A stretch of DNA of 58,265 bases, filler included, from Jimgerdemannia flammicorona (Eukaryota): assembly GCA_003990765.1 (NCBI GenBank). It is 2 parts of 2 records of this genome, joined end to end, with 100 filler letters (N's around TTAATTAATTAA, not from the genome) between each part and the next. Parts side by side here need not be neighbours in the genome. Positions count along the whole stretch, not along the records: positions 29,190 to 58,265 come from RBNJ01000521.1; 1 more part is not named here. One strand, 5' to 3'. The position numbers and the translations under genes are program-made. This document shows positions 3,532-58,216 of this stretch, in pieces. Below the pieces are notes generated by a model. That model was given only the letters and a program-made list of their open reading frames with translations. It did no database searches and was not told the origin of the DNA. How positions within the stretch are numbered: the stretch's first letter is position 1; every line of letters starts with the position of its first letter.

Positions 3532-5410
3532 TATAACAGTTCTAGTTTCTAAATGAGGAAGCAACTAGTTCTGGTGATCCTAAGTAGCTTGAGGATTTAA
3601 GTGTTCTTGAAGTATTTCTGGGAAAAATATTCTGAGGCTTTATTCATGAGAACAAAGGGGATATTTATACAAGATCTGAAAGAAGAATCTGGAAGGATCT
3701 GAGAAATTAAAGAAAAATACCAAGAGAAAAGTTCTTGGTAAAGATGACAAATGATGATAAATAAAGTTCTATAAGTTTTCAGGATATTCCATGACTAGCT
3801 AAATAAGTACTAGTTAATGCTCAGCACCAAGAAGAAAATTTCTAAGTATGCAGAAAGTGCTGGAAGGTTATAGAATATTCAAGAAAGACAGAGAAAAGAA
3901 ATAAACTATGCTAAAATGTTACATCTCCCCCTCCTTAAGAATCAATGTTCTCATTGAATTCTTAAAGTTACATATAATAAACAATAAGACTAAAAGAAAC
4001 TTCAAATTAAATATATCAACTCATTGGCAAGGATTGGCCATCCTTGTATAAGGCAAGGGCCAAAGTATCATCTTGATTGGATGAGAACTGGTTCAAACCT
4101 CATTGGTTGCAGGATTTATAGGATTTTTCTATATCTCTTATTTCTGATACTATATTCCTTAGAGAGCCCTAATATATAATGTGCCTGATCAGCACAGTAG
4201 GTCATCTACTATCCAAGGGGAGAACCTTATGGGCAGTCAATGAGTTCCTTTTTGCTCGAACTCTTAGATGAGGTCTTGGGAGTTCTTCAGATTGGCAACA
4301 GATTCCCAGATAGTGTCATATTCAGGGTAACCCATCCACTTGACTAGGTATTCTGTGTGATGGTATTGGACTTGTTTGTCTAAGATTTTCTCAACTTTAT
4401 ACTCAATGTGGTCTTCAACTATGACTGGTGCTGATGGTGTCAGAATTCAGCCAGGATATAGGGGTGACTGGTTCTAGGCCTTGAGTTGTGAAACATGGAA
4501 TACTGGGTATATATGTATGGTTGTTGGCAAGTTGAGATGGTAAGACCAGGTGGAGATTTACTCAGTAATCTCAAAGGGTCCAAGATACTTGGGCTGGAAT
4601 TTGGCTGACTGGTGATTAACTTGAGATTGAGCCTTGATGTTATTGACTTTGAGTAGAACCATATTACCAATATTGTATATGACATCTTGCCACTTCTTAT
4701 CTGCATACTTAGCTTGATGTTGCTGAGCCTTTTGTAGGTTTATAGTGGCGATCTTGAGAAGGGAATCTATTTTGTTAATAAGATTCTGGGCTGTGGGGAC
4801 TTATGTGTGACTGGATTGCTGGAATGGGACTAGGCTTGCAGGAGTCTCAGGGTTTTGACAATGAAGTAGCTGAAATGGGGAAAGGTCAGTTGATAATTGG
4901 TTGACATTATTGTAAGCGAACTCAGCATAGGTTAGATAGTGGTCCCAATCATCTTGCTTATAAGACATATAGTTTCTGGGCATTTGTTCAAGTATTCTGT
5001 TCATTCGCTCTATCTGTCTATCAGTTTGAGGATGGAAGGCAGTGGATATAGCAATTTGGGTTCCAAGGGTCTTGAAGAGTGCTTGCCAGAAGTGACTTGT
5101 AAACTTGGGGTCACAGTTGCTGATAATTACTCAGAGAAGTCCATAATGGTGGAAGACAGTCTTAAGAAGATTCTTGCAATTTCTGGGGCAGTGATATTGG
5201 TTGTGGTTGGCTTGGTAATTGTAATCTTGGTGAGATGGTCCACAAATACAACAATAGTATCATAGCCTGTTTTGGTTCATGGGAGTTACACAATGAAGTC
5301 CATTGTGACTTGTTCAAACTTCTTGGTTGGAATTTGCAAGAGTTGTAGAAGACTGGCAGGTGCTTGATTGCTTGACTTGTTTCTTTGATAAAGATCATAG
5401 CTTTGAACAT
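3532..5410 (-). mobile_element. Family C chromoviral Ty3/Gypsy 3' end: integrase core, chromodomain, PPT, 392-bp 3' LTR
   Basis: rve motifs MDFI..VFVDHLTK..DPKFTSHFW..FHPQTD..ERMNR..AEFAYNN (about 5300-4880). Chromodomain EYKVEKILD..EYLVKWMGYPEYDTIWES..NLKN (about 4410-4285). PPT AGGAGGGGGAGA at 3924-3935. LTR 3532-3923 bounded by TGTAACA..TGTTATA. Confidence 0.92.
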
Positions 5411-40442: not shown

Positions 40443-43400
40443 GAATGAGTCAGCAAGGAGGAATACTGAGAGAGGGTAGGCAGAGGAAGTGAAGAGGGTG
40501 GCCCAGAGAGTTGAGAAGACTGTAGATAAGGAGAAGTAACTGTGGAAAATGCTGGAAAATGTAGTGGCTGAGGAGCTAGGAGGGGAGGACTTTTAGGTAC
40601 TTAGTAAGAGATACTAGGGTGAAATTCTGTATAGTGAGAAGGTACTAAGAAAAATCTATGATGAGATAATAGCAATATTACTGGAGGCTGAGACTTATCA
40701 AGTGGATAATAACAGGAAGGCAGTGCTTAGGATAATTGCAAATAATTATGCTACTTATATATGGGGTCTAAGGAAGAGACTGGAAAAGTAGCAAGTAATA
40801 TATGAGGAGTACCAGTCAGAGATAGAGGCTATGGATGGGACAGATTGTCAGGAGATCTTAGTGATACTAGATACTTAGCAGAAGGAGACAGATAAGTTAG
40901 TAGTAGAGAGGAACTTGGATCTTATATGTGATGAGATGAGTATAGAATTATAGGGTGGGTGCTTTCATTCAAAAAACATTATTCAATATGAATAGTACAA
41001 CTAGAATCTTCTCTTTGAATATCAATAGACTGAGAGATACAATGAGGTATCAGAATATCTTTAGTTGGTTGAAGAGACTGAATGTTGATCTTTTCTTATT
41101 ATAGGATGTGGGTTATGATATGGACTTAGACTTACTGGACTAGATAAGAGAATAAGGAGATACAGTGATATGGCAGGGTCAAGTAAATATTCTAGTTAGA
41201 AAGGGGGAGGGGGACATTGGAGATATTGGACATTAGGAGAGCTAATTGATATGGAGAGTATAGAGGAGGCCAGGCTAGAGCCTCCTGACTGTTGGGTCAT
41301 ATTACTGTCCAGCAGAAAGGAGGAAATATATGGATTAGATAAGGGGTCTGCAGGAGGTAGGTATTCTGATAGTTGTAGAAATTGGCTGTTTAGAGGGTGA
41401 CTTTAATATAATATATAATGGAAGGATAGATTGAACTGATGGAGAGAAGAGAATAGTAGGTAGGAGTGGAGGAATAAAAGATTGAGAGAAGTTGGAGAGA
41501 CTGAGCTCTTTGGTAGATGTAAGAAGACTTAGGTAGGGAGATCATTAAGTCTATACTTACTGGGTAGCAGGGTTGGAATTATAAATTGACTGGGTATTGA
41601 CAGCTGAGTGCTGAAGAGCAAATATCTGAAGCAAGATGGAGATGGTCTGGTGTTCTTGGTCTGACTACTGGAAATTGCTAGATGGAGAGAGGTTTGGAGA
41701 TAGGGGAGAGGGGTCTGAATATTGATATCTAAAGACTTCACTGCTGGGAGACCATACCTTGTAGGAAGAATGGGTGGTAGATGTTAGCACTAGGATTATT
41801 AGCTAGAGGGCACAGAGATTGGAGATTGGGAATTATTGACAGTAGTTGAAATCTGATACTCAGCAATACTGGGGAGATATGGGGAGAGAGAGGGGTACTC
41901 AGCAGAGGTGTTAAGCTTGGTGGACATCAAGAAGGTTGGAACAACTACTGGAGAGGTGGGCTAGGTCTTTGACTTACTGTGAGGAAGGAGATTGGAGAAT
42001 TTAGCAGATTTAGTAAGAGATGAAAGAACTAAAGAGACTGCTTAGATAGGAGGAGGAACTGCAGATGAAGGGACTGGTAGTAAGGCTATAGTGGTAGGGT
42101 CTAGAGGAGGGGGGGTAGCCTATAAAGTTTTTATTACAGTTGTTACAGACTAGGAGGATGAGGTAGTGGTGGGAAAAAGTATTAGATAAGGTAGAGAAAA
42201 TAGTAATTGGGATACCTGAGATCTTGGACATACTGCAGTCTTACTGGAAGCAACTGTAGAGTGAAGAAAAAGGTGGTGAAGATACCATTGGCATTAAAAG
42301 GCAGTTGGAGGATTAGCACTTAGACCCAGCTATAGACCTAGACAAACTTAGAGCTCCTATATAAGAAGAGGAGGTGTGTCAGATTTTAGTGATAATAAGT
42401 ATAAAGATAGCCTTAGGAGAAGATGGGTTACTATGAAACTTTTGGAAGAAGATAGCTAGAATCATAGTTGTACTAAAGGAGATAGTATAGATGTGTGATG
42501 AGATCATTAGCTCAGAGACCTGGATTGGGAGACAGTGACTGGGGCTTATAGCTCTATTATATAAGAACAAAGGAAGAAGGGAGAATTGGAAGAACTAGAG
42601 GCTAATTATGCTCCTGGATATAGATTGCAAGTTGGTGATGAAGATATTAGTAGCCAGACTGCAGAGAGTGACTCATCAGATATTGGGGGCTGAACAGAGA
42701 GACTTGTTTGATCTATAATAGAACAGCATAGGTTTATAGTATTATCGAGAGTGTGCATACAGCTGGGGTCAATAGTTGACTAGTTTTTCTGGACCAAGAG
42801 AAAGCTTATGATAGAGTTTAGTATATATGACTGAAGAGAGTATTGAAGTAGATAGAAGTCTCTCCAGGATTTAGAAGATCGTTGATTTGTCTGTTAGAGG
42901 AGAGTCAAATAGCTATTATAGTAAAGAGATATAGAGGAGAGTTCTTTCCCCTAGGCAGAGGAGTACCACAAGGAGACCCACTGTCACTGATCCTCTATAC
43001 TCTCTCATTGGAACTTCTGTTGAATAGAATATGGTACAAAGTTAGGGGTTTGAATATTTTGGGAGTAAATTGAAAGATTAGAGTCTTTGCTGATAATATA
43101 GTAGTCAGGCTGAGCTCTGTAGAGGATGTGGCAGTACTGAAGAATGCAGTAGAGTGATATGAGGAGTGCTCAGATACCAGACTCAATTGACATAAGTGCA
43201 AGACTTTAGTTCTAGGAGGAGAAATAGTTGGTGGTGATGTAATAAACATAGTAGTCTCAGCTGGAGAAGTAGTCTACTATCTGGGAATCTATTTTTTGAT
43301 GTATGGCTTCTTGCTATCTCATGGTTGGTGGGAGCAGTGACTACTCATATGAGGGGATATTCTCTTGCAGTAAGAAGACCATTATATCTTACTAGCAGGA

Positions 43401-44815
43401 AGAGTAATAGTGCTGAATGTATACTGCTACCTAAGCTGTGGTATTTAGGACATCACTTGGACTTTCCAGTATAGGTGGTTAAGAGGCTAATAAAGATGGC
43501 AAGGTCATGAATCTGGGCAGGGCAGTGGAGTCAGATTGACTGGGAGGTATTGACAATACCAGTAGATAGAGGAGGACTGGATCTAGTGAACTTTACCAAA
43601 TACTTATACTGCTTGAGGGCATAGTGGCTGAAGAAAGTAAGTGAATTGTAGGGCTGCAAGTGGATACTCCTTATATAGTGAGTATGGGAGGCTTGATGCT
43701 TCTCCTGGGATACAACAGGTGACCTGCTTGCTCTGATGGCTCTTGAAGAGAGTAAAAAGATATACTATAAAGAATTCTGATGGAGAGTAGTGAATAGTGC
43801 TCACTACATTGATCTCAGATAGAGGAGTGATGAGAGAAAAGAGGAATGGGGACCCCAGATGTGGAGATGGAACCATCTACTGTTAGGAGGTACCCCAGTA
43901 GATAACTTTCAACTAAATGATGGCATAGAGTATCTATGGAAGTATGAGAGGGATCTGTGGCCAGAGGCTTGGCAGGGGGTAGAGATTCATGAGAAGTGGA
44001 ACTGGATTAGTATCTGGTCTTGGTACAAGAAGGTGGTAAGATAGCTTCTCTCCAAGTTTTGTATAGTATAGTGGAGGCTACTATGATACAATATGATACA
44101 AAACTACTGATTGGGAAATTTGATAGAAGGAGGTATTCTGAAGTATAGAGAGTATCTGAATATCAGACAGGAGGGGGACATAGTGCAGATCGCTAAGTAT
44201 TGGCTGGGGGAGTATAAGGTGTTGGGAGATTTCTGACAAATTGTCAAAGATCAGATAGGACTACAGTCTTTAGAGAGAGTAGAGGGGGTGAGGTGGGATA
44301 ATCTTTAGCATAGGCTGGTGGAGGAGGAAGAAGGCCCAGCGGGAGCCAAGGGAGCGAACCCAGAGCCAGTGTCAAAGTGAACAGAAGACATGTGGAAGAG
44401 CATGTATAAGGGGGACAAACAAAGAATGTAACTGAAAATGCATTAGCCATTTATTGCTATGTAAAAATGTGGTCCTTATATACAAAATACGACATCCCAA
44501 AAGGGAGGATGCACCACAACTCGGGGCGAACCGAATTAGGAACCACATGACCACTGGAGATAGGTGGAGATAAAGGGAGAGCCAATCCCAGTTGCAGGAT
44601 AAAAATCACAAACAAATACAAACAAAACAAATCCAAATCGAGATTAAAAAACATCCACAGACCCCGGAGGGGTGAGCGTAAGCGAGGGGTGAGGCCGAAA
44701 TGGAGCGAGCTGCAGCGAGCCCGAGTGAAGCGAGGGGCTGAAGGCAGCAGAGGGGAGTGGAGTGAGGCCGAGACCCCGGAGCGAGCGCGAGACTCCGGAA
44801 GGGGCAAGGATGTTT

Positions 44816-46734
44816 TTAATCCTCTTCGGCAGAACTGGAGGCACCAGAAGGTGATGAAAACGCAAAACGAGAGCAATGGATTGAAGAAGAAATAGAAGGA
44901 AGATGTGAATGAACAATCAGAGGGCGTCGGGAAAGAGATGAAAGTCCATGGCATGAAAGAGAAGAGTGCAGGACGGTATCAGAGCATTGAGCAACCCAGC
45001 AAGCACGATCAAATGGTATGATAAGAATCAGGGGTGGGAAAGAAGAGGGGGTACAGAGAGGGTAAGAGGGGAGAGAGGGAAGGGAGGGGGGATAAAGAGA
45101 AGAGAGTAGGGTAGAGCAAACAACAGACCATTCAACAGAAGCAAGCAGATCACAAACGATAGAAATAGGGTAGGCACGATGATGGACCATGAAGTTGCCA
45201 AGAACCCGAATAGCAGACACCCAATCAGAACGATGGGAGCAGTATAATGCAAGATGACAAGCCTCACCCCAAATGCATTCAAGAAGAGTGCGACGAGGAT
45301 GATTGGACAAGAAGTCAGGGAACTGTTGGGAATGGGGAAAACGAGAATAAACAATAGTTTGAAAAGGAGAAAAAGAAATGAAAAGGTCCAAAAAGGGAAT
45401 ACTAGTCGTACTGCACATCCAGGTAATAGAATGGTGGGGAGGGTAGATGCTCAGGAATACACTAGGGATATCAACACCAGTAACAGTAAAGACAATAAAG
45501 TCATCAATGTATCAGTAAAAGAAGATATCTCCAGCCCGGAACACAATGGAAAGAGGTGAAGTAATATCATATAACACACGCAATTCGTGGGCCAGGCCAA
45601 CAAGGTTGGCAAGGGTGGGGGCACAATTCGTTCCCATGGCAATACCAGAAGTCTGGTGGAAGGAGCCAAGGGCCGACTCAAAATAATTAGAGCCGCAGAC
45701 GAGGAGCGTAAGCTCAACAATGGAAGCCAATGAAACTGGGGAATCCAAAGGAAAAACAATGAAACCCAAGAAACAAAGGCAAGCATCGATCTCATCAAAA
45801 TGAATAGCAGTATAAAAGGAAGAGAAGTCACCAGAGGCCAAGTGGGAAAAATGATGAACAGGCACAATGGTGGAGCAGAGAAGGGCGAGCTCCTGAGTAT
45901 TACGAAGAATGGTATACTCAGGCCCAAGATGGTGTTGTAAGAGAGCCATCCAGGAGAGAAAGAAGTGGGATAACCACTTTGAAATCTTGGTGGTAGGAGA
46001 ACTGTAAGCAGCTGTAATAGGATACCAAGCTTGTGAACTTTAGGAAGAGCATAGAAAACCAGAAGAGAAATATCCGGGGAGGATAAAGAGTCCTGAAAGA
46101 AGTTAAAAATGGGGTTTGCGAATGGAGAATCCAAAAGCAATCTAGCATGAGCCAGAGATATCCGAAGAAGAGTGAGAACCTCACCCAATCCAAGAGCACT
46201 AGGCTCGTAAGCCGTGGCTCGAAGGAGGGCAGAAAGGCCATCAAGGTAGAGTGACTTAGGAATAAGTGCAAAACCCTGATTCTTATCAGTGACTATGAGC
46301 AAATGTATAGGCAATTGCTTGATCAATTTAAGTGTGGTATGTATGGCACAGTCCGAAACCAAGCAAGAGCAAGCGCATCCAGGAATGAACAACAAGCAAG
46401 CCATGTTGAGGAATACGCAGTGTGAAGAGACATTGGGAGGGGGGATCCAATCACTAGGAACAAAATAGCAAGAGAGCATCTCACTGTGATCTTGAAAGAA
46501 AATGGCAAGGTCAAGAGCATGATGAAAGCATGTGAGATGAGCCAGATCGGTGAAGGAGAATTGTGAGAGAGTTGCAGGAAAAACAAAGCGAGGACCCAAG
46601 GATAAGACAAAGACTTGAAGGGGAGAAAGGGGGCAGTTAGCCGAAGAAAAAGGAGGAGACAAAAGAGCTCCAAGAGAAGAATAAACCCAAAAGTTCGGGA
46701 CAAGCAACTGGGAAAGGCGAAGAGGGGACAGCAT
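44816..46734 (-). pseudogene. Penelope-like reverse transcriptase (several frameshifts, one stop), no GIY-YIG seen
   Basis: VLSLGPRF, SDWIPP, TDKNQG, FYALPKVHK, GDFSSFYT, QTSGIAMGTNCAPTLANL, FY*YIDD (RYIDD), IPFLDL, SNHP..GE..CS..RAYP thumb. It terminates SAEED* at the pseudo-LTR boundary. Confidence 0.9.
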
Positions 46735-46820
46735 GAGGAACTACTCAGGGCGCACCAGAAGTGACAACAGAATCCGAGAAGGGATGGGGACACCGGAGGA
46801 GAACCACACCCAGGGGAAGT

Positions 46821-48037
46821 TTAAGAGCAGGAGGCCTTCTCCTTCCCTCTGACTTTTTTTGAAGGTAGCGAACTTGACGAATGAGAGCACACCCCATCAG
46901 AGTGCCAGACCTTGCAGCCACAGGCTTTTGTGCAGCCCTTACATTCAGGGGCACAGAGGGAGGAGGCAGAGGAGGAACTGGCAGAGGAGGCCAAAGGCAA
47001 GTGAGCAGTCAAAGGGGCAGCAGCGCAAGGAATACCACCATGAGGACAGACAGACTTGGCCGGGTGCCAGTAGCACAGTGGAGGTGACCGGAGCAGACAG
47101 CACAAGGCCAAGCCCCAACAGGGCAAGAACCAAGTTGGCAGCCATGCTTGGGGGCAGGGGGAATGGAGGAGGAAGCCTTGGCGGGGGAGGGGGACTGAGA
47201 AGAGGCCGATGAAGCCTGATTGGGCTTGGTGGGGGACTTGGCGGGGGTCTTGGAGGGGGCCTTGGCGGTGGCAGCAGCGAAGGAACAAATCTCAGTACAG
47301 GCAGCAGCACAAGCTTTGGCACGAATGGCCTCGGAGACCGAAACTTCAGGGGAAGCAGGCAGGGGAGCAGTGGCGGCAGTGCGAGCAGCAGCAGCAGTAT
47401 ATGATGTCTCCTGCTCATGAAGACAAGTGACAAAAGAGGTGCCGGCGAGGAGGAAACGACACACAGCATCGATGTCAGCAGCGACAGAAGGAACATCTTG
47501 GATGGTGAAGCTACAGAAGGGGGCAGCATCTGAAAGGCAGGAGGAGGCGAAGGCCACAAAGGCGGCACAGGCACATTGGAAGGAGGCAGAGGCAGTGGTG
47601 GCGGAAGCAGCGGCGGCATCAGTGGTAGCAAGCTTGGCAGCGGTAGTGGCAGCACGAATCTCTTCAGAGAGGGCTTGGCGGCAGGCCTCAGGGAGAATGG
47701 AATAGCGGATGGCAGGCGGAGTGACGGCATCGACGTCATGGTGGAGACGAGCCTCCTTAGTAGAGAGGGCAAGAACTGACCGGAACTGGGAGAGGAGCAG
47801 ATGACCAGAGGGACAAAGGTCCAAGAGAAGGGAAAGGATGGCAGACAAGACATAGGCCTCAAACGAGACAGTGGTGGGGGTGAAGGCAGGGAGAGGGGGA
47901 GGAGGAAGTTCCTTATCCATGAGCTCGTCGATGAGGACGGTGGCCCTGAGGGCAGGCGGTACAGCAGAGGAGGAAGAAGGCCCAGCGGGAGCCAAGGGAG
48001 CGAACCCAGAGCCAGTGTCAAAGCGAATAGAAGACAT
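46821..48037 (-). CDS. PLE ORF1, Ala/Pro/Ser-rich with a Cys/His-rich C-terminus; probable frameshift near 47060
   Basis: 342-aa ORF 47009..48037 starting inside the pseudo-LTR, continued by the frame of 46821..47288. TATATAA-like box at about 48122-48128 upstream. Confidence 0.65.
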
Positions 48038-49210
48038 GTAGAAGAGTGTGTATAAGGGGGACGAATAAAGAACATAACCGAAAATGTATCAGCCATTTAT
48101 TGCCATGTAAAAACGTGGTCCTTATATACAAAATATGATGTCCCAAAAGGGAGGATGCACCACAACTCAGGGCGAACCGAATTAGGAACCACATGACCAC
48201 TGGAGATAGGCGGAGATAAAGGGAGAGCCAATCCCAGTTGCAGGATAAAAATCACAAACAAACACAAACAAAACAAATCCAAATCGAGATTAAAAAACAT
48301 CTGCAGACCCCGGAGGGGTGAGTGCGAGCGAGGGGTGAGGCTGAAACGGAGTGAGCTGCAGCAAGCCTGAGCGAAGCAAGGGGCCGAAGGCAGCGGAGGG
48401 GAGCGGAGTGAGGCCGAGACCCCAGAGTGAGCGCGAGACCCCAGAGGGGGCAAGGATGTTTTTTAATCTCGATTTGGATTTGTTTTATTTGTGTTTGTTT
48501 GTGATTTTTATCCTGCAACTGAGATTGACTCTCCCTTTATCTCCGCCTATCTCCAGTGGTCATGTGGTTCCTAATTCGGTTCGCCCTGAGTTGTGGCGCA
48601 TCCTCCCTTTTGGGATGTCATATTTTGTATATAAGGACCACACTTTTACATGGCAATAAATGGCTGATGCATTTTTGGTTATGTTCTTTGTTTGTCCCCC
48701 TTATATATGCTCTTCTACATGTCTTTCATTCGCTTTGACACTGGCTCTGGATTCGCTCCCTTGGCTTCCGCTGGGCCTTCTTCCTCCTCGGGGGTATTGG
48801 AAATAAGTAGTTGACTTTTGAATAGACTCTGACCATTTGGATTGGGCTCACTGGACATTAGCTCTATATATTTGAAGATGGACAGCACTTAGTATTTGGG
48901 GTATAAGTTGTACAATGAGAGTGGTTATTACTGGACATTCTGAATAGTTGGTGGCAGGGGTAGGGACCTAGAGGGAGAACTTGTAGGAGACTTGTAGAAT
49001 GTATTTGTGAGAAGAGTAGAGGGAGGATTGGGGTCACTGGGAAGTTAATATCTCTTTAGAGAGGGAGGGGGAGGGGAGGAAGAGAGGGTTCTGTGTAAGA
49101 TTGGGTAAAGAGTATATTGGTACTTTTGTATTAATAGAATGTAAATTGGATGATAATTAGTAATAAAGTGGAAGTCCAAGTGACTATAAAAAAAAAAAAA
49201 AAAAAAAAAA

Positions 49211-52200
49211 GAGAAGTAGCTATAGAAAATACTTAAGAATGTGGTAGCAGAGGAGCTGAGAGTGGGGGGGGGAACTTTAGAGTACTGAGTGAGAGGTACT
49301 GAGGTGAAATCCTGTATAGTAAGAAGATATTGCAGAAACTCCAGGATGAGACAATAGTAGCTTTGTTGGAGGCTGAGGTATATTAAATAGATGATGACAG
49401 AGAGGTAGCTCTTCTAGTAATTTCAAATGATAGAGCTGTATATATATGAGATCCAAGAAAGGGGCTGACAAAGTGGTAGATAGTGTGTAAAGAGTACCAG
49501 ATGGAGATTGAAGCTATGGATAGTGTGGATTGTCAGGAGATCTTAGAGATATTAAAGGCTCAGTAGAGAGAAGTAGATGAGCTTGAGGCAGAGAGAAATC
49601 TAGATATTGTAGGAGATATAGTAAGTATGAAATTATAGAGTGGATGGCTATTCTTCCAATAATGCTATTTAATATGAATAGTATAACTAGAATTTTATCT
49701 TTAAATATCAATAGGCTATAAGGAGTGATAAGGCATCAAAATATCTTTAGATAGCTAAAGGAGATAGATGCAGATTTATTCCTACTATAAAATATTAGAT
49801 ATAATAGAGACTTGGATATTCTGAACTAGATGAAGGAATGGAGTAGTGTGGCTATTTGGTGTAGACATATGGACATTCTAGTTGAGAAGAATAAGGAGAA
49901 CATTGGAGATATTAGATATTGGGGGAGTAGAGTAGTGTAGAGAGTTTGGAAGAGACCAGGCTAGAGGCTCTTGATGATAGAGTTGTATTATTGTCCAGCA
50001 GAAAGAGGGGAGAGAGTGAAATGGATTTGAGGACTACAAGAGTCTAGAGTGCTGATAGAGGTGGGGATTGACTGTCTAGAGAGAGACTTTAATATAATAT
50101 ATAATAAAAAGATAGACAGAACTGATTGGAGAAAGAGAATGGCTAATAGGAGTAGTGGTATGGAATGGAAGGAAGTCAAATGTCTGAGCTCATTAGTGGA
50201 TGCTGGGAGGCTTAGATGGAGAATTATAGAGTCTATACTTACTGAGTGGTAGGGCTGGACTTGAGGATCAACTGGATGTTGACTGCTGAATACTGGAGAG
50301 TTGATATCAAAACTTTGAAAACTATTTGATGTCTGTGGTCAGATCACTGGAGTCTTCTAGGTGGGGAGTGTTTTGGGGGAAGCAGGGAGGAGCCTGGACA
50401 TTAGTATCTAAATATCTCTTTGCTAAAAGAGGTCTCTCTATGAGATGCATGAGTAGTAGATATTAGCTCCAAGATACTTGGTTGGAGAGTAGAGGGGCTG
50501 ATGATTGGAGATTGCTGAAAGAGATTGAAATCTGATATATAATAATACTGAGGGAAGATAGGAAAGATGCAGGGTACTCAGAGGAAGAAGCAAGTGAGGT
50601 GGGTCTCTTAGAGGTTGGCAAGATTGTTGGTATCTTGGGTAGATCTGTTGAATGATGATAAGAAGGGGAATTGGAGAATACAGTAGATTAGGCTGGAGGT
50701 GGAGAAGTTAAAGAATATACTGAGACAAGAAGAGAACCTATAGGTTAAGGATATGGTAGCCTGGTTGAGATAGCAGGAGTTAGAGGAGAGAGAGAGGCCT
50801 ATCAAATTTTTGTTATAGCTTTTGTAGATAAGGAGAGTATGGCAGCAGTAGGAGGAAGTCTTGGATGAGACTGAGAGATTGGTTGTTGAGATACTGGAGA
50901 TTTTGAACTAGTTGAGCAAACAGTGGGGGTGATTGTAGAGTAAGGAGAAAGGGGGGATAAGAGTACAGGACATTGAAAGATATCTGGAGGACAGCACTCT
51001 AATCTGGCAGAGAGCTTAGGTGACCTTAGTGCTTCTGTCTAAGGAGAGGAGATTCAGCATGTACTGATGATGATGAGCTCAGGAATAGTACTAGAGAAAG
51101 ATGGCCTACTGTAGGACTTTTGAAAAAAGATAGCAGGAGTTGAGTTAATTCTAGAGGAGATGATAGTAATATGCAAGGAGGTTATTAGTTCAGGAGAGTA
51201 GATTGGGAGATAGTGCTTAGGTCTAGTAGCTCTACTGTTTAAGAATAAGAGAAGAAGAGAGGAGTGGAAAAACTAGAGGCTAATTATGCTTCTAGATATA
51301 GATTACAAACTAGTTATAAAGATACTAATGACTAGACTACAGAGAGTAGCTCAGCAGGTTCTGGGGGCTGAGCAGCAAGGATTCATAAGAGATGTCTGAT
51401 CAGAGATAAGACAGCCTGAGTATATAGTGTTATTAAAGGAGTTTATACTACTGGGGTAGATGGAAGACTGGGTTTTTTGGACCAAAAGAAGACTTATTAC
51501 AGGGTCCAGCAAGTATGGTTAGAAGGAGTGCTAAAGTATATAGAGATCTCCAGTGAGCCTTGATCAGTCTACTGAAAGGGAGTCAGGTAGCAATCATGGT
51601 AAATGAATACAGAGGAATTTTATTCTCTCTGAGTAAAAGAGTACTGCAGGGAGATCCACTATCACTGATCTTATATATATTGTCCCTAGAGCCTTTTTTA
51701 GACAGAATAAGATAAAAGGTGGGGGGGTTGGACATTCTGGGAGTTAATTGGAAGGTAGGGGCCTTTACTAATGATATGGTGGTTGGGTTGGGATTAGTGG
51801 AAGATGTAGCAGTACTAAAAGGTACAGTAGAGTGATATGAGAGATACTTGAGTACTAAGCTTAACTGATATAAGTATGAGACTTTGGTATTAGAAGAAGG
51901 AATAATAAGTGGAGATATAATTAGAACAATTGTCCCTATAGGTGAGACTGTTCACTATCTGAGAATCTACTTTTTGATATATAGCTCTTTATTACCTTGT
52001 GAATAGTAGAAGCAATAGTTAATAGAGTAGAAGAGTACTCTCTTAGAGTGGGGTGATCAGTATATATCTCTGGTAGGAAGGGTGACTGTACTGAATATAT
52101 ACTGATTGCCTAAGCTATAGTATCTGGAATACCACTTAGACTTTCTGATATAGATGGTTAAGAGATTGTTAAAAATGACCAAGATTTGAATATAGGTAGA

Positions 52201-52661
52201 GTGATAGAGTCAGATTAACTAGAAGGTATTGACCTTGTCAGTGGATTTTGCCAAGCATCTTTATTACTTAAGGGTATCATGGCTGAAGTGAGCTAGTAAG
52301 TTGAGAGATAGAGAGTAGGTTTCCCTAATATAGAAGGTGTGGAAGGCCTGGTTCTCCCTCTGTAGTATGACTGGAGATCTACTATCTCTGGTAGCTTTAG
52401 AGGAGAGTCAGAGGATATGTTATAGGAGATTCTGGTAGGGGGTAGTAGATGAGACTCACTATATTAGTCTCTAATAGTAGAGTGATAAGGGAGAGAAAGA
52501 ATAAAGACTTGTAAGACCATCTTCTGTTGGATAGGGTGCCAGTAGATAACTTTTGCTTAGAGAATAATATAGAGTACCTTCAGGAGTATGAGAGAGATCT
52601 ATAGTCTGAGGTATAATAGAGGGTGGAGATTGGAGAAGAGTGAAACTAGAATAGTATTTAG
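49211..52661 (+). mobile_element. Older degenerate L1 copy that hosts the two flanking L1 insertions
   Basis: ORF2 start MNSITRILSLNIN at about 49673, DFN, WSDHW, QGDPLSLILY, AFTNDMVVG. Cut at 52661 by the poly(T) of the next copy. Confidence 0.9.
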
Positions 52662-52744
52662 TTTTTTTTTTTTTTTTTTTTTATAGTCCCTTGGACTCTG
52701 TCTTTATTACCAGTCTATGAATAAGTATACAATATCACCACCCA

Positions 52745-55700
52745 CTATCCGATCTCCATCAGGTGGCCCCACCCCACCTCGTCACATATAAAGACCACCC
52801 TCTCACCAACAACTCCAACTCTCCCACTACTCTGACCACAGATTTTCACCACCAAGCGGCGCCTCCGACCCCCCTGCAGCCCCCAACCAAGCCACCAGCC
52901 TGTCAAGGTATCCTCCATAAGGAACTGCCACCTTGCTAACCGGCTCCCCAAGCTCGGTCGCTTCTCCTCCTCAAACACAAATAGCTAGTGGCTGGCCAAC
53001 CCAATCCAAATAGCCAATGCCCAGCCTAGAGTAATCCACTCTTCCCCAACCCCTCCTATCAATCGATCCCTCAGGTCCTCCCACCTCCTCTGTACATCAT
53101 CACTCCTACGCCTTACCCCCAAGTGGTCCCCAACAGCCTGCCAAAAATCTCCCAACACCTCACACTCCCCTAGCCAATGTTCTGGTATCTGTACCAATCC
53201 CCCTACCTGCCCGACATTATGGCACTCCTCGCAGTCAAAGCAGTCCCCTACAACAAGGTGTCCTGAGCAGAAGTTAAGCATTACATTCCTCCTCAGTACA
53301 CGCCACCAGACTATCCAGTACTTCAGCAGTATCCAATTTTTCACTGCGGCACTCCAGGTCCAAACCCCCTGCCAGTTCCACTCCTCACCAATTCCAACTC
53401 CTTACCAACCACTAGGCCACAGATCCTGGCCTGGACCCCTTTGACATTCAATGCCATCACTAATGTTGAACTCCAGTAAAGGCATGCCTCTCAGAAGAAT
53501 GCTATTCCATCTCCACATCACCGGGTCCCAAGCTCTCTCTCCCTCATCCCCTCGCCAGCGAATACCAATGCAGTGTGCCCCCTCGGCTATCCTCCACCAG
53601 AAGCCTTTATATCTCAGTTGCACAGTATTCTGAAGCCCAACCAATGAAAGAAGATCACCAGTCAAGCCTCTAGGTGACATCCACCTCTCCCATATCTTCT
53701 GCAGCAGAGGGACCCAGCCCCCTCCATGCAACTCTACTGCCCTCCTCAGCCACCAAGCCCTCAAGCAGTGTAGTCATTTGGGGAAGTCCACCAGCCCAAG
53801 ACCACCTCTCACCACCGGTAGGGACAAAGTCTCCCAACCAATCTGACTCCGTCTGCCAGCCCAAATCCATCCCTTGGCCATCTTCACCAATCTCTTCACT
53901 ACCCAGGCTGGGAAGTCCAGATGATAGGCCAAATACCACAGCTTTGGCAGCCAGTATACATTCAAAATCGAGATCCTTTCTGCTAGTGAGAAGTGTCGAC
54001 CCCCCCAACCCCGCAGGTCCTCCTCCCAAATTCCAATCCTCTGCTCCCACCACAGCCTGGGTAAAACAGACCCATAGACCAACAAATAGATGCCCAAATA
54101 CCACACTGTCTCTCTGGTGGGGACAATTGTTCCAATAACTTCTCCACCCACCAAGCCATTGCCCAGCACCATTGTTTCACACTTGTGCCAATTCAGCTTC
54201 GCCCCAGAGTTCTCCTCATACCACTCCACTGTCTTCCGGAGCTCCTCGACATCCACAGTCACTCCCAAACCAACCACCATGTCGTCCACAAAGGCTCCAA
54301 CTTTCCAGCCAATGCCATAGATAGAGAGCCCCACAATCTTCTGCCAAATCCTGTCCATCAGAGGTTCCAAGGAAAGAGCATACAAAATGGGGGACAGTGG
54401 GTCCCCCTGGGGCACTCCCCTACCCAGAGGGAAAGCCACCCCTTGATGCTCATTGCACACAAGCGCAGCCCTACTCCTTTCCAGTAGGCTGACCATAACC
54501 AACCGAAATGGGCCTGGAACTCCAATTCTATCCAATACTTTCACCAGCCAGACTCGCCGTACCCGGTCATAAGCCTTCTCCTGATCCAAGAAGACAAGAT
54601 GCCCATCTAGTCCACAGGCTCAAGCACCTTCAATAACTCCATATACCCAGGCCATGCCATCTCTAATAAGCTGACCCCCTATGAAGCCCCTCTGCTCAAC
54701 ACCCACAATTTGCTGGGCTATCTTCTGTAGCCTTGCAACCACCACCTTAGTCACCAACTTCCTGTCCATATCTAGCAACATTATCGGTCACTAGTTCTTC
54801 CAGTCCTCTCGCCTTCCCTTGTTCTTATAGAGCAGTGTCACCAGCCCAAGGTCTTGCTCCCCCACTCATCTCCCTGACCACAATATAGAGTCACACAGTG
54901 CTGTCAACTCCCTCAATATGCCCGGAACTCCAACCATTTGCTTCCAGAAGTCCCAAGGGAGGCCATCCTCCCCAGGTGCCATACCCGAGGCTATCACGGC
55001 AAGAACCTGGTGGATCTCGTCCTCCTTTACAGGCATCACCAGGTCACCTAGTTCCTCAGCTTGTGGTGGGTGCCAATCTTCTAATATTTGGTCAATGGCT
55101 GTAACATCCACCCCACCCTCCTCCTCACTCCACAATCCACTCCATCATACCTTCAGCGTTCCAAGGATGTCCTGTACACCATGTACTAGTACATCATCCG
55201 AGTTAAGTACCCCTTCCCACTGCTGCTGTATCCTTCTCGCTCGAAGTGTCCTTGTGAGAAACTTGGAAGGCCTCTCCCCTTCCTCCAGCCTCTGTCAATG
55301 AAGCCGTGCCACCAGGCCTTGCACCCTTGACTCTTCCTCTTCCCGTAGCACCTGTTGCAGTTCCCCAACCTCCATCCTTACCCTCGTTATTCTCCAATCC
55401 TCTTCTCCCTCCACTGCCGCCAGTCTCACCCACTCCTCCAGGAGCCTAGCCAATCTAGTAGAAGCCCAACACACCTTCTGCCTTCGCTGCTTCTCAGCCA
55501 CTCTGCCAGCCTCGCTCCAATACATCCTGGCCATCTCTTTCATCCTCATCCACCGAACCCCAATCACGGCCCCTTCCTGCCGCCAATTCGCCACCTTCAG
55601 CTGAATGTCTTTCGCCCACTCCTCCCAACAGGCCTCATCATCCAACAAGGAGGAATTTAGGTGCCAATGTCCAGGCCCATCCCTACTTCCCCCAAAACAC

Positions 55701-56401
55701 CCCTGTCCCAAGAGGCCCCAGTGATCTGACCACAGACACCATTCTACCTCTAACATCTTCCAAACATTGTGGCCCCAACAGTTGGCTGTCAGAATCCAGT
55801 CAATCCTTGTCTCCAGATCTCCAGCCCAATGCATATATACCCTCCTGTCCCCCCAGTGCTCCCTACCAGCATCCACTAGTGCTCCTAGCCATTCAACCTC
55901 CTCCCACATCGCTAACCCCCCACTCCTGCTCTCCGCACCCTATCCTCCATCAGTTCTATCCATCCATGTATCCCGAACCATATTGAAATCTTCTCCAAGC
56001 ATATCCAACTCAGCTTCAGCAAGGATCCTACTCTCCAGGAGCCCTTTCACCCAATCCACATGCTCCCCCTGCACAGCAGGACAGTAATAGGAGCCAATAG
56101 TGACTGGCTTCCAACCTGCACAAATCCACTCACCCCAGACCAGTCTCTCCCCCCAGCTCCTCACATCCTTTATCTCCCCTCTGCCTTTCTGAACCAGAAT
56201 CCTGACCTTGCTATTCCAAATTACCATACCACCCCATTTCTTAGTCCATTCCATCCTATCAGTACTATCCTCGCACCTGATATCCTGTAAGAGGAAGAGA
56301 TTGGCCTCCAATCCCTTCAACCAAATAAAAATATTCCTGTGTCGAACCGTGCTCCTCAGCCCATTCACATTCAAAGAATAAATGTTGGTTGTACTGTTCA
56401 T
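52745..56401 (-). pseudogene. L1 ORF2: APE endonuclease, RT, C-terminal CCHC
   Basis: YSLNVNGL, LLQD, GEDFN, TRIDWIL, WSDHW, APGEDGLP, DQEKAYDRV, GVPQGDPLSPILY, AFVDDM, YLGI, GGLGL, CEEC..EHWLGEC. Several stops and frameshifts. Confidence 0.93.
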
Positions 56402-56429
56402 AGTAAAATACGGTTTGTTCTCAATCAAT

Positions 56430-58216
56430 CCCTACTGCTCCATGCCCCTCTTCTCCTGTGCTGTGTCCAAATTATGTTCTGCCATCACCTCCTCCTCTTC
56501 AGCCCTCTGAGCCTCCAGTCCAGCCAACAGCTCATTCATCTCCTCATCAGCCTTCTCCTCAAACTCCTCTCGGTACTCGATGCAAGCCTCCTGCCAAAGC
56601 TGCAACCCATGACACCTGTTTCAACAGTACTCAGCCTTCTCCCCAGCAACCACCACCAACTCTGCCTCCCTCTCCTTATCCACCTCATACCCTTCCTCCT
56701 CCAGATACACTGTGAGGATTTCCACCTTCAGCACCATCGCCACTCCTTCCCCCTGCAAAATTCTCATCCAGTGCTTGTCCCCCATCCCATGCAAGTCCAC
56801 CTCCCCCAGCTCTTCTGCCGCCAGGTTGTTCATCATCCAGCACATCCAAAGTAGGTTCCCCACCTCCTTTCCACCAGGGGTCACTGGCCTCCCTCCATCC
56901 AGCATTGTGGTGTCAGCTCCCGCACTCGCATCCTCATCCCATACCTCTGGGACATCCACTAGTTCCTCCTCCCCTGCCATCACTACTCGGTCCCCATCTA
57001 GTACCTCTGGAATGCTGAATTTCACCTGCTGGGTCCCCAGCATCATCGCGTCCTCCTCAGACTTGTTCCTGGAAGCCGGGCCATGCCTGATAAGAGGGGA
57101 AGGGGTGGGGGAATTCTCCCAGACTTCATCCCAAACCTCCAAGGTGCTGTCAGCATATAGGTCGCTAATCTTTTCCTCCTTAGCCTTCCCTGACTTTGCC
57201 CCATCATTCCCACTCCTCTCACCAGCCCAGACACTCGCTCTGGCCCCTTCTGCACTCATCTTCATGCTCGCATCCTTCTGTGGTCCACCCCCCAGCTTAG
57301 CCAGCAGATCCTTCTGCCTCTTCTGCCTCTGAGCCCTTTCCCACTGCACCTTGTCCACTCAAATCCTCTTTCCATCCACCACCTCCAGGAGCATCAACTC
57401 CTCAAAAGTCTTCCAGGCCTTAGCTCACCATTCCACAGCCCCATCTAGCTCCTCCAGTGCTTCCAATAAATCTTCCTCCTCTTCTTCACTTTCTTTCACC
57501 CATGTCACCTTGTACAGGAAAACTCCCCAGACCAACACCGAAGGCCAGTCCCTCATCTTCCCGGTAGCCTCTTTCCCAGCCAACCAAATCCTCACATCCA
57601 CATCCCTAGTCCTGAGTGTGGTCCCTTCCCAGACCCTGAATCCAATATCCACCACCTCTCCATACTCCACCATGACATCCTCCACTCTCTTCCTCGTCTC
57701 CATTGCCGTCACCATGGGTACTCCCTTCACCAGCAGTTGGACTACCCTTGGATCCCATTTCAGACACCTCGCCATTGGAACACACACCTCCCCAACCACC
57801 AACCCAACCTTCAGTGCCTCCTCCAGTGGTTCAACCTCCTCAAATCCCACCTCCACCCCCTCCAGTCCCTTCAGAAACTTCACCAAAGCCGCTCCCACCA
57901 CCTGCTTAGCGATAAGCCCCAACACCATTTTTGCCATCACTACTAAGCCCCGGAAGCACAGCGTGACTGCGAACACTGAGATCGACTTCTTGAGTAATGG
58001 AGCCACCGCCAGTCCCATTACACCATCCACCAGGTCTCCGGGCCTTGTGCCCTTCCCACCACTCGGCTCACCATCAGCAGTCCCATCTAGATTTTTTTCC
58101 AGATCACCCATCACACCCCCATCAGCAGTCCCCACCCCAGCTGCTACCCCCCCAGCTCCACTCCTATGGCCTGCTAGAGAGGAACCCCCAAGAGGTTGCT
58201 GCCTGGAAGCCGCCAC
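56430..58216 (-). pseudogene. L1 ORF1
   Basis: ORF pieces 57425..58216 and 56621..57358 lie directly upstream of ORF2 and are homologous to 25592-27540. Confidence 0.85.

Follow-up and report, generated by a model that had tools for sequence, protein, structure and literature searches.

The stretch of DNA analysed here, hereafter the window, comprises 58,265 nucleotides of the Jimgerdemannia flammicorona assembly GCA_003990765.1 and contains, within the part taken from RBNJ01000521.1, a decayed Penelope-like element (PLE) that is read on the minus strand. In a preliminary description of this DNA, a 151-nt block of the element, which we call Y, had been interpreted as a cluster of cGNAg mini-hairpins folding on the first-strand cDNA. 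We found that the robust structure at this site is the inverted repeat flanking Y, not the mini-hairpins, which are mainly a by-product of repeated words. Tentatively, and with somewhat less than even confidence, we propose that Y forms the loop of a module that is able to fold as a hairpin, measures about 185 nt and lies at the 5' edge of the pseudo-long terminal repeat (pLTR), and that the inverted repeat bridges antisense cDNAs or lets them fold back. The parts of this putative module would be a 16–17-nt A/T-rich inverted repeat, one half of which lies over the stop codon of the open reading frame (ORF), and the 151-nt repetitive block, which is rich in GC and CpG.

A unit of 3,646 nt is present 1.13 times, which gives direct pLTRs at 44321–44821 and 47967–48468 that are 91.8% alike over 502 nt, Y included; the earlier placement of Y inside a pLTR of a PLE was thus correct. 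Each direct pLTR has an arm on the minus strand with a leader, a TATA-like box, the ATG and the first ~70 nt of the ORF. The arm of the downstream pLTR (copy A) lies at 44321–44656 and is 93% alike to that of the upstream pLTR (copy B) at 47967–48301, where the ATG is at 48037–48035. The TATA-like sequence TATATAAG of copy B, at 48128–48121 on the sense strand, is 91 nt ahead of the ATG and is kept in all three arms. The third arm is an inverted, 5'-truncated pLTR copy at 48455–48796, whose own sense strand is the plus strand. It is 342 nt long, compared with ~500 nt for a direct pLTR, and is 94% alike (94.3% over 335 nt). This copy lies head-to-head with the upstream pLTR, and 153 nt separate the arms of the resulting 342-nt inverted repeat. 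A partial tandem with pLTRs, together with an inverted truncated copy adjoining the upstream pLTR, is the layout given for PLEs in the accessible part of PMC8557442. Read along the sense strand, the ORF end is followed by the repeat half with the TAA stop, Y', the other repeat half, the leader with the TATA-like box, the ATG and the 3' terminus.

The element ends at 44321, its 3' terminus, and the homology of all three arms stops at one base, 71 nt past the ATG at 48037, where the plus strand reads GAGGAGGAAG. The cDNA start, that is, the 3' end of the element, is thus placed inside the first part of the ORF, as is characteristic of PLEs. Pairwise, the three arms are 92–94% alike, and such near-equal divergence would fit a single insertion event. 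An assembly artefact as the source of the 342-nt inverted repeat was ruled out, because the arms differ at ~6% of sites.

The inverted repeat said to enclose Y was confirmed. In copy A its left half (44640–44656, 17 nt) and its right half (44808–44824) are 82% complementary, with 151 nt between them, and the right half holds the stop codon TAA (44816–44818, minus strand). The left half in copy B (48286–48301) is identical to 44640–44655. The right half around copy B is supplied by the first 14–16 nt of the inverted copy (48455–48468/48471), so that the inverted copy joins the direct pLTR exactly on the bracketing repeat and lengthens the repeat of copy B to 342 nt. A small foldback or miniature inverted-repeat transposable element inserted at this place was considered and rejected; there is no duplicated flank, and the right repeat half overlaps the ORF stop codon.

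Folding was predicted with ViennaRNA and compared with shuffled sequences. Y alone did not fold better than the shuffles, either as DNA of the plus strand (z +0.89 for copy B, -0.03 for copy A, with an energy model that may under-credit GNA loops) or as RNA of the minus strand (z 0.06). When the repeat was included, a single long hairpin was predicted on both strands, with z -2.84 for RNA (none of 200 shuffles as good) and z -2.08 for DNA (7 of 200 as good).

The coding region is a single decayed ORF at 44819–48037 on the minus strand, with the reverse transcriptase (RT) core at 44819–46039. It is disrupted by frameshifts and by an in-frame TGA at 45512–45514, and it carries the motifs DKNQG, LPKVHK, GDFSSFYT, SGIAMGTNCAPTLANL and YIDD. 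These include the marks of a PLE-type enzyme (DKN or DKG before the RT, LPKVHK, GIAMGT..AP..AN, YIDD), and the relatives are PLE RTs. An exhaustive phmmer search with the element protein returned 957 relatives at E ≤ 1e-3. The top one, P0002, is a 406-aa metagenome protein with 45% identity (E 5.6e-95), and the named relatives are P0005 from the fungus Racocetra fulgida and P0010 from the amoeba Stenamoeba. A homology search restricted to longer proteins gave no hit. Motifs and relatives together confirm the earlier statement that the plus strand runs antisense to an RT ORF of the PLE type, and Y on this strand therefore has the polarity of first-strand cDNA. No second PLE was found within the window. 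The sense strand of the element (44321–48468) is poor in A (12–15%), and long open frames in several reading frames are due to this composition alone.

The match of the element protein to Pfam RVT_1 was weak (19 bits; cut-off 29.6), and the six ORF pieces of the element matched no Pfam family, GIY-YIG included. Among 13 relatives scanned in the same way, RVT_1 was present in 10 and RVT_1 together with GIY-YIG in two (P0021 and P0031), and GIY-YIG was not found in the three closest relatives tested (P0002, P0004 and P0006). The ORF ends ~230 residues past YIDD, at about the same point as in P0002. From the absence of a Pfam family in the ORF pieces and the GIY-YIG-free closest relatives it follows that the element is of the PLE type and without an endonuclease (EN) domain, with a residual chance that the domain was lost through decay.

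Of the 13 sequencing runs listed with matching sequence, all have small shares and none is an RNA run. Contigs of three soil sequencing runs (X1, X3 and X4) align over Y at a likeness of at least 80%. One contig each of X1 and X4 has an extra T behind 44812, which produces a run of six T opposite the six A in the left half and improves the pairing; contigs of these two runs also confirm the internal order of Y followed by the ORF end. One X3 contig spans Y into the inverted arm (48355–48505). Run X1 supplies 190 contigs that match the element at 80–99% likeness. We also noticed that most of the differences shown by X1 contigs of this family are transitions (A>G 149, G>A 124, T>C 115, C>T 78).

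According to the reading we prefer, two first-strand antisense cDNAs would share one internal RT start site, ~70 nt from the beginning of the ORF, and each would be primed by one of the two opposite DNA ends of a target that had been broken or cut. They would be complementary to each other only at the inverted repeat, through which the short cDNA would anneal to the long one, and each would then copy the other. A single cDNA folding back on the repeat could take the place of this step, but why the inverted copy ends at the canonical 3' terminus would then be less simply explained. The pairing would join the short inverted pLTR head-to-head to the long copy and would provide a primer for the second strand, and the predicted outcome is the observed layout together with a complete second strand. 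Y itself would be a spacer, or else a platform of repeated binding words upstream of the pLTR promoter. We infer the bridging or fold-back step, and likewise any role of Y itself, from the arrangement of the parts. Since the flanking inverted repeat sits at the inverted junction, a role of the site at the cDNA stage is probable, either in priming the second strand or in joining. To this extent the cDNA-stage signal of the preliminary description is retained, although what speaks for it is the flanking repeat at the junction and not the mini-hairpins.

A similar arrangement was reported for the EN-containing Penelope elements of the rotifer Adineta vaga, for which the available part of the source describes palindromes at the 5' end of the pLTR and inverted junctions, with self-priming proposed (Arkhipova et al., 2013, PMC3846280). 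The inverted pLTR in the rotifer elements is shorter than the direct one and has a 15-bp overlap with it, according to the same portion of that paper. Here too the repeat lies at the 5' edge of the pLTR and a shorter inverted pLTR overlaps on it; as in the portion of the A. vaga account at hand, there are two direct pLTRs and one shorter inverted pLTR with an overlap of ~15 bp, the pLTR takes in the first ORF codons, and a palindrome or inverted repeat marks the junction. There are also differences from what that portion describes. The rotifer palindromes are compact (18–38 bp), whereas the repeat halves here are split by a 151-nt GC-rich loop, and our element is without GIY-YIG and without a visible target-site duplication, and its nearest named relative is fungal. 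By analogy, the module is the same kind of feature as the rotifer pLTR palindromes, with a long repetitive loop.

The common end of the arms, 71 nt past the ATG, fits the internal RT start and two-strand extension of a PLE from Anolis carolinensis. With this element, Poseidon, it was shown in vitro that the RT starts internally in the early ORF and that both target strands are cleaved and extended (Frangieh et al., 2024, PMC11167929). The cDNA start is inside the early ORF in both cases, at 111–118 nt in Poseidon and, putatively, at ~70 nt here, and the two-strand extension is consistent with two convergent cDNAs in our element. In contrast to Poseidon, which has an endonuclease and, where its ORF begins, a hammerhead assisted by protein (PMC11167929), our element has neither. 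To the question of how the tandem and inverted pLTRs of PLEs arise (PMC11167929, and the accessible parts of PMC8557442 and PMC3846280), the present insertion adds a clean single example, in which the inverted and the long copy share the cDNA start and are joined exactly on a built-in inverted repeat. This arrangement is compatible, at the cDNA stage, with priming from two sides and bridging, or else with fold-back.

An inverted segment is also found in LINE-1, where twin priming is said to produce 5' inversions, as reportedly described by Ostertag and Kazazian in 2001. The likeness to our case lies in two cDNAs from the two strands of one target, a microhomology joint and an inverted segment. 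In LINE-1 the second priming occurs at a variable internal site of the RNA, whereas both cDNAs here would start at the same defined site; in addition, the joint here is on a built-in inverted repeat. A literature search for twin priming together with Penelope gave no paper on PLE structure, as judged by titles.

To see how far the arrangement is shared, we compared 19 post-stop regions of distant relatives that lack the endonuclease. An inverted repeat of 9–11 bp near the stop was present only in one family of four loci (L015, L037, L051 and L052) and at one further locus. Post-stop structure was mixed, with z from +1.65 to -8.07 and values below -2.5 in 4 of 19. Both results weigh against the bridging module, and since neither a repeat near the stop nor strong post-stop structure is widespread in the relatives, the module is not general. 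The same side of the balance holds several other points. The junction on the repeat is drawn from one composite insertion, and the X3 contig that bridges Y and the inverted arm may derive from this same locus of a related organism; fold-back and two-cDNA bridging would look alike in the sequence; no target-site duplication is visible at the element ends; the copy A repeat is imperfect (82%); and nothing marks Y as more than filler. The nominal excess of cGNAg hairpins in copy B, with one exact GCGAAGC, also leaves room for a cDNA-level role of the hairpins themselves.

In the four-locus family, a (CCCTAA)2.5 sequence lies on the stop codon. At L015 it occupies positions 1637–1652 (TAACCCTAACCCTAAC, also in the other three loci), that is, reverse-complement telomeric repeats that start on the stop codon. 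The inverted repeat of these loci, 9–11 bp around 144–148 nt, is located 43 nt downstream of the telomeric repeats.

The two copies of Y were found where the preliminary description had put them, at 44657–44807 (copy A) and 48303–48453 (copy B, the stretch it had flagged), 151 nt each. Y is purine-rich on the plus strand and C/U-rich on the sense strand, and it is internally repetitive. The copies align without gaps; 19 of the 151 sites differ, all by transitions, and 16 of these 19 are in CpG context once restored. Copy B has 70 G, 38 A, 34 C and 9 T on the plus strand (46%, 25%, 22% and 6%). It is therefore purine-rich and T-poor as had been said, but the purine richness is not peculiar to Y, as the whole element has 12–15% T on that strand. 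The GC content of Y is 68–69%, and its CpG observed/expected ratio of 0.70–0.92 (0.92 in copy A) is the highest in the element, the rest of which has 0.45. Repeated 8-mers number 15 and 13, as compared with 1.5 and 1.8 in shuffles, and none of 1000 shuffles reached the observed values. Y thus consists of degenerate direct repeats of short purine-rich words such as CGGAG and CGAAG; with Tandem Repeats Finder, a unit of 19 nt was detected in 2.2 copies at 48406–48446. A G-quadruplex on the plus strand was considered and provisionally set aside; judged by eye, the GGGG runs are spaced 12–45 nt. We also considered Y' as an intron, since its C/U-rich tract has CTGCAG at the end in copy B, and rejected it; copy A reads CTGTGG, and no GT is present at the 5' side.

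This composition could mean that Y works as double-stranded DNA or as sense RNA, either as a homotypic cluster of binding words upstream of the promoter or as a C/U-rich protein-binding tract in the 3' untranslated region or leader, the hairpins being irrelevant. Such a role would explain why repeated words are strongly over-represented in both copies, and it would fit the high CpG ratio and GC content and the position of Y, 175–325 nt upstream of the TATA-like box on the sense strand. Transcription starts in the pLTRs of Penelope and Chlamys elements, according to the available parts of PMC8557442 and PMC3846280. Repeated words can, however, come from slippage and be functionless, and the inverted junction on the flanking repeat is left unexplained by such a role, though it is compatible with it. 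We regard this explanation as rather unlikely, yet far from negligible.

It would also account for the repeated words, including the 19-nt tandem unit, if Y were functionless low-complexity filler and if the repeat and the junction were coincidental products of microhomology-mediated repair. Y alone has no structural signal, and the distant relatives have no counterpart to it. On the other hand, Y is full-length and free of indels in both copies and is covered at the likeness given above by the soil contigs. In addition, the repeat has a length of 16–17 nt, extends over the stop codon and shows improved pairing in the contigs of X1 and X4, and palindromes at this exact position recur in PLEs, as described in the accessible part of PMC3846280. 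Filler joined by chance is, on this evidence, unlikely.

A stronger form of our own proposal would make the inverted repeat and Y a dedicated cDNA-stage module that programs the inverted pLTR architecture and second-strand priming. The cGNAg hairpins would then compact the 151-nt loop on the antisense cDNA so that the repeat halves or the convergent cDNAs could meet, in an endonuclease-free lineage that inserts at chromosomal breaks and not at telomeres. We consider this improbable as a whole; if it were true, the origin of PLE inverted repeats could be tested with a defined sequence.

As regards the mini-hairpins, five of the six that had been listed are present in copy B as written, whereas GC-GCGA-GC was not found in that form. 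The five are CCCC-GGA-GGGG, GC-GAA-GC (48371–48377, an exact GCGAAGC heptamer), GCC-GAA-GGC (48383–48391), CCCC-AGA-GGGG (48439–48449) and GC-GGA-GT, in which the stem has only one C-G pair and one G.T. Copy A has GC-GAGC-GC at 44781–44788, and the equivalent place in copy B has only one pair. Watson-Crick pairs are kept in copy A by the first hairpin alone (ACCCC-GGA-GGGGT).

We counted cGNAg triloops with a stem of at least 2 bp and compared them with dinucleotide shuffles. Copy B has 4, as against 0.46–0.48 in the shuffles (P ~0.0005–0.0007), while the single hairpin of copy A (0.52–0.56 in shuffles) was not significant (P 0.41–0.45). The comparison proposed earlier for a CpG-restored Y gave a divided answer: there were again 4 cGNAg hairpins, no more than in copy B (0.78 in shuffles, P 0.005), but for any loop class P was 0.055. 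Triloop hairpins of all kinds were rarer than in the shuffles (4 vs 8.5, 7 vs 8.8, 8 vs 10.6). CGNAG is over-represented as a word (8 vs 2.7), and when its occurrences are taken as fixed, pairing flanks are seen in 1 of 2, 4 of 6 and 4 of 8 cases (P 0.42, 0.03 and 0.14), the first P being that of copy A and the second that of copy B; an excess of stems is thus not clear. Across the 58 kb, 11 cGNAg hairpins are on the plus strand and 3 on the minus strand, and copy B of Y is the sole place, on either strand, with at least two per 151 nt. In the 19 distant relatives the cDNA strand has none of these hairpins in 14 post-stop regions, one in four regions and two in one, so that no region exceeds two per 151 nt and the conservation looked for in related PLEs was not seen among these distant ones.

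Because triloops are below the shuffle numbers, folding of Y alone shows no excess and word repetition is strong, the hairpins mostly reflect repeated words and not selection of stems. That they are a selected single-stranded DNA signal (for second-strand priming, for capping the end or as a platform for proteins) on the first-strand cDNA is therefore weakly supported and, in our judgement, highly doubtful, despite the one-copy excess, the unique cluster with its exact heptamer, the cDNA polarity and a location at the inverted junction, where self-priming of PLEs is proposed in the accessible part of PMC3846280.

Mini-hairpins of the d(GCGAAGC) type, with GNA loops, are reportedly found at phage single-stranded DNA origins and similar sites, from the work of Hirao and co-workers. 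Copy B resembles them in having the exact GCGAAGC and three other C-GNA-G triloops, with stems of 2–5 bp, on the strand that has cDNA polarity. Unlike such signals, the hairpins of Y are not kept in the second copy, do not clearly exceed what word repetition gives and were not seen in the distant relatives examined. The mini-hairpin claim, which rests on one copy and a repeated word, thus adds little.

A hammerhead ribozyme in the pLTR is typical of PLEs, though not universal. The earlier statement that none is visible at Y was borne out, as neither Rfam nor a motif scan found a hammerhead core in the pLTRs on either strand. In the Rfam searches, the window had no match at the gathering score and the region 43800–49300 had no ribozyme at E ≤ 10, although Rfam also missed a plain core of this kind in the related locus L050 (see below). 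Of the 55 CTGANGA sites across the window, not one falls in a pLTR. When one mismatch was allowed, the sense strand of the pLTRs gave no candidate; the single weak one, CTGCAGA at 48301, is on the antisense plus strand and in copy B only.

The same Rfam search of 40 related loci gave no match at the gathering score, a null result that is uninformative because Rfam misses a visible core in one of them. This locus, L050, corresponds to a related PLE whose unit of 4,185 nt is circularly permuted, with a terminal repeat at 1–99 and 4186–4284. About 430 nt past the ORF stop, the terminal repeat has a core resembling a hammerhead, in which CTGATGA is followed by a short helix, GAAA and a palindromic GCGCGC; this core was found by the motif scan and went unreported by Rfam even at E ≤ 10. 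L039 and L016 are contigs of ~4 kb whose terminal repeats are identical and whose ORF continues from one end to the other, and they are probably tandem PLE units assembled as circles.

PLEs that lack the endonuclease, Coprina and Athena, were reportedly described by Gladyshev and Arkhipova in 2007. Our element agrees with them in the lack of an endonuclease and in a long N-terminal region followed by the DKN motif, RT and thumb (as given in the available parts of PMC8557442 and PMC13159263), and its relatives, like theirs in those parts, are from fungi and protists. It differs from Coprina and Athena as those parts present them in that its 3' end, which reads ...GGCCTTCTTCCTCCTC on the sense strand, has no reverse-complement telomeric repeats, and no telomeric array is nearby. 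No telomeric repeats were found near the element, and in the window there is one mismatched 12-mer at 617–628, where 0.42 are expected by chance. The layout of pLTR and inverted pLTR is not shared by EN-deficient PLEs of fungi and protists, according to the accessible part of PMC3846280. An element with this layout and without endonuclease or telomeric repeats is therefore a combination not seen in fungal and protist PLEs, as far as that part of the source extends.

A metagenome scan yielded distant PLEs only (23–32% identity), and an exact scan for a 29-nt string of the arm and repeat gave no match in genome contigs or in viral contigs. The window, which contains 88 N, is rich in retroelements. 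A second, unrelated RT ORF piece is at 53777–54619 on the minus strand (Pfam RVT_1, E 5.1e-20, 72.5 bits). Direct repeats at 41189–41626 and 49875–50308, 70–73% alike and 8.7 kb apart, flank the PLE insertion and may be the ends of an older element that the PLE entered. The flanks of the PLE (42000–44320 and 48797–51000) have a strong excess of G over C (G 29–30%, C 9–12%), and this skew reverses past ~52 kb (52001–58000).

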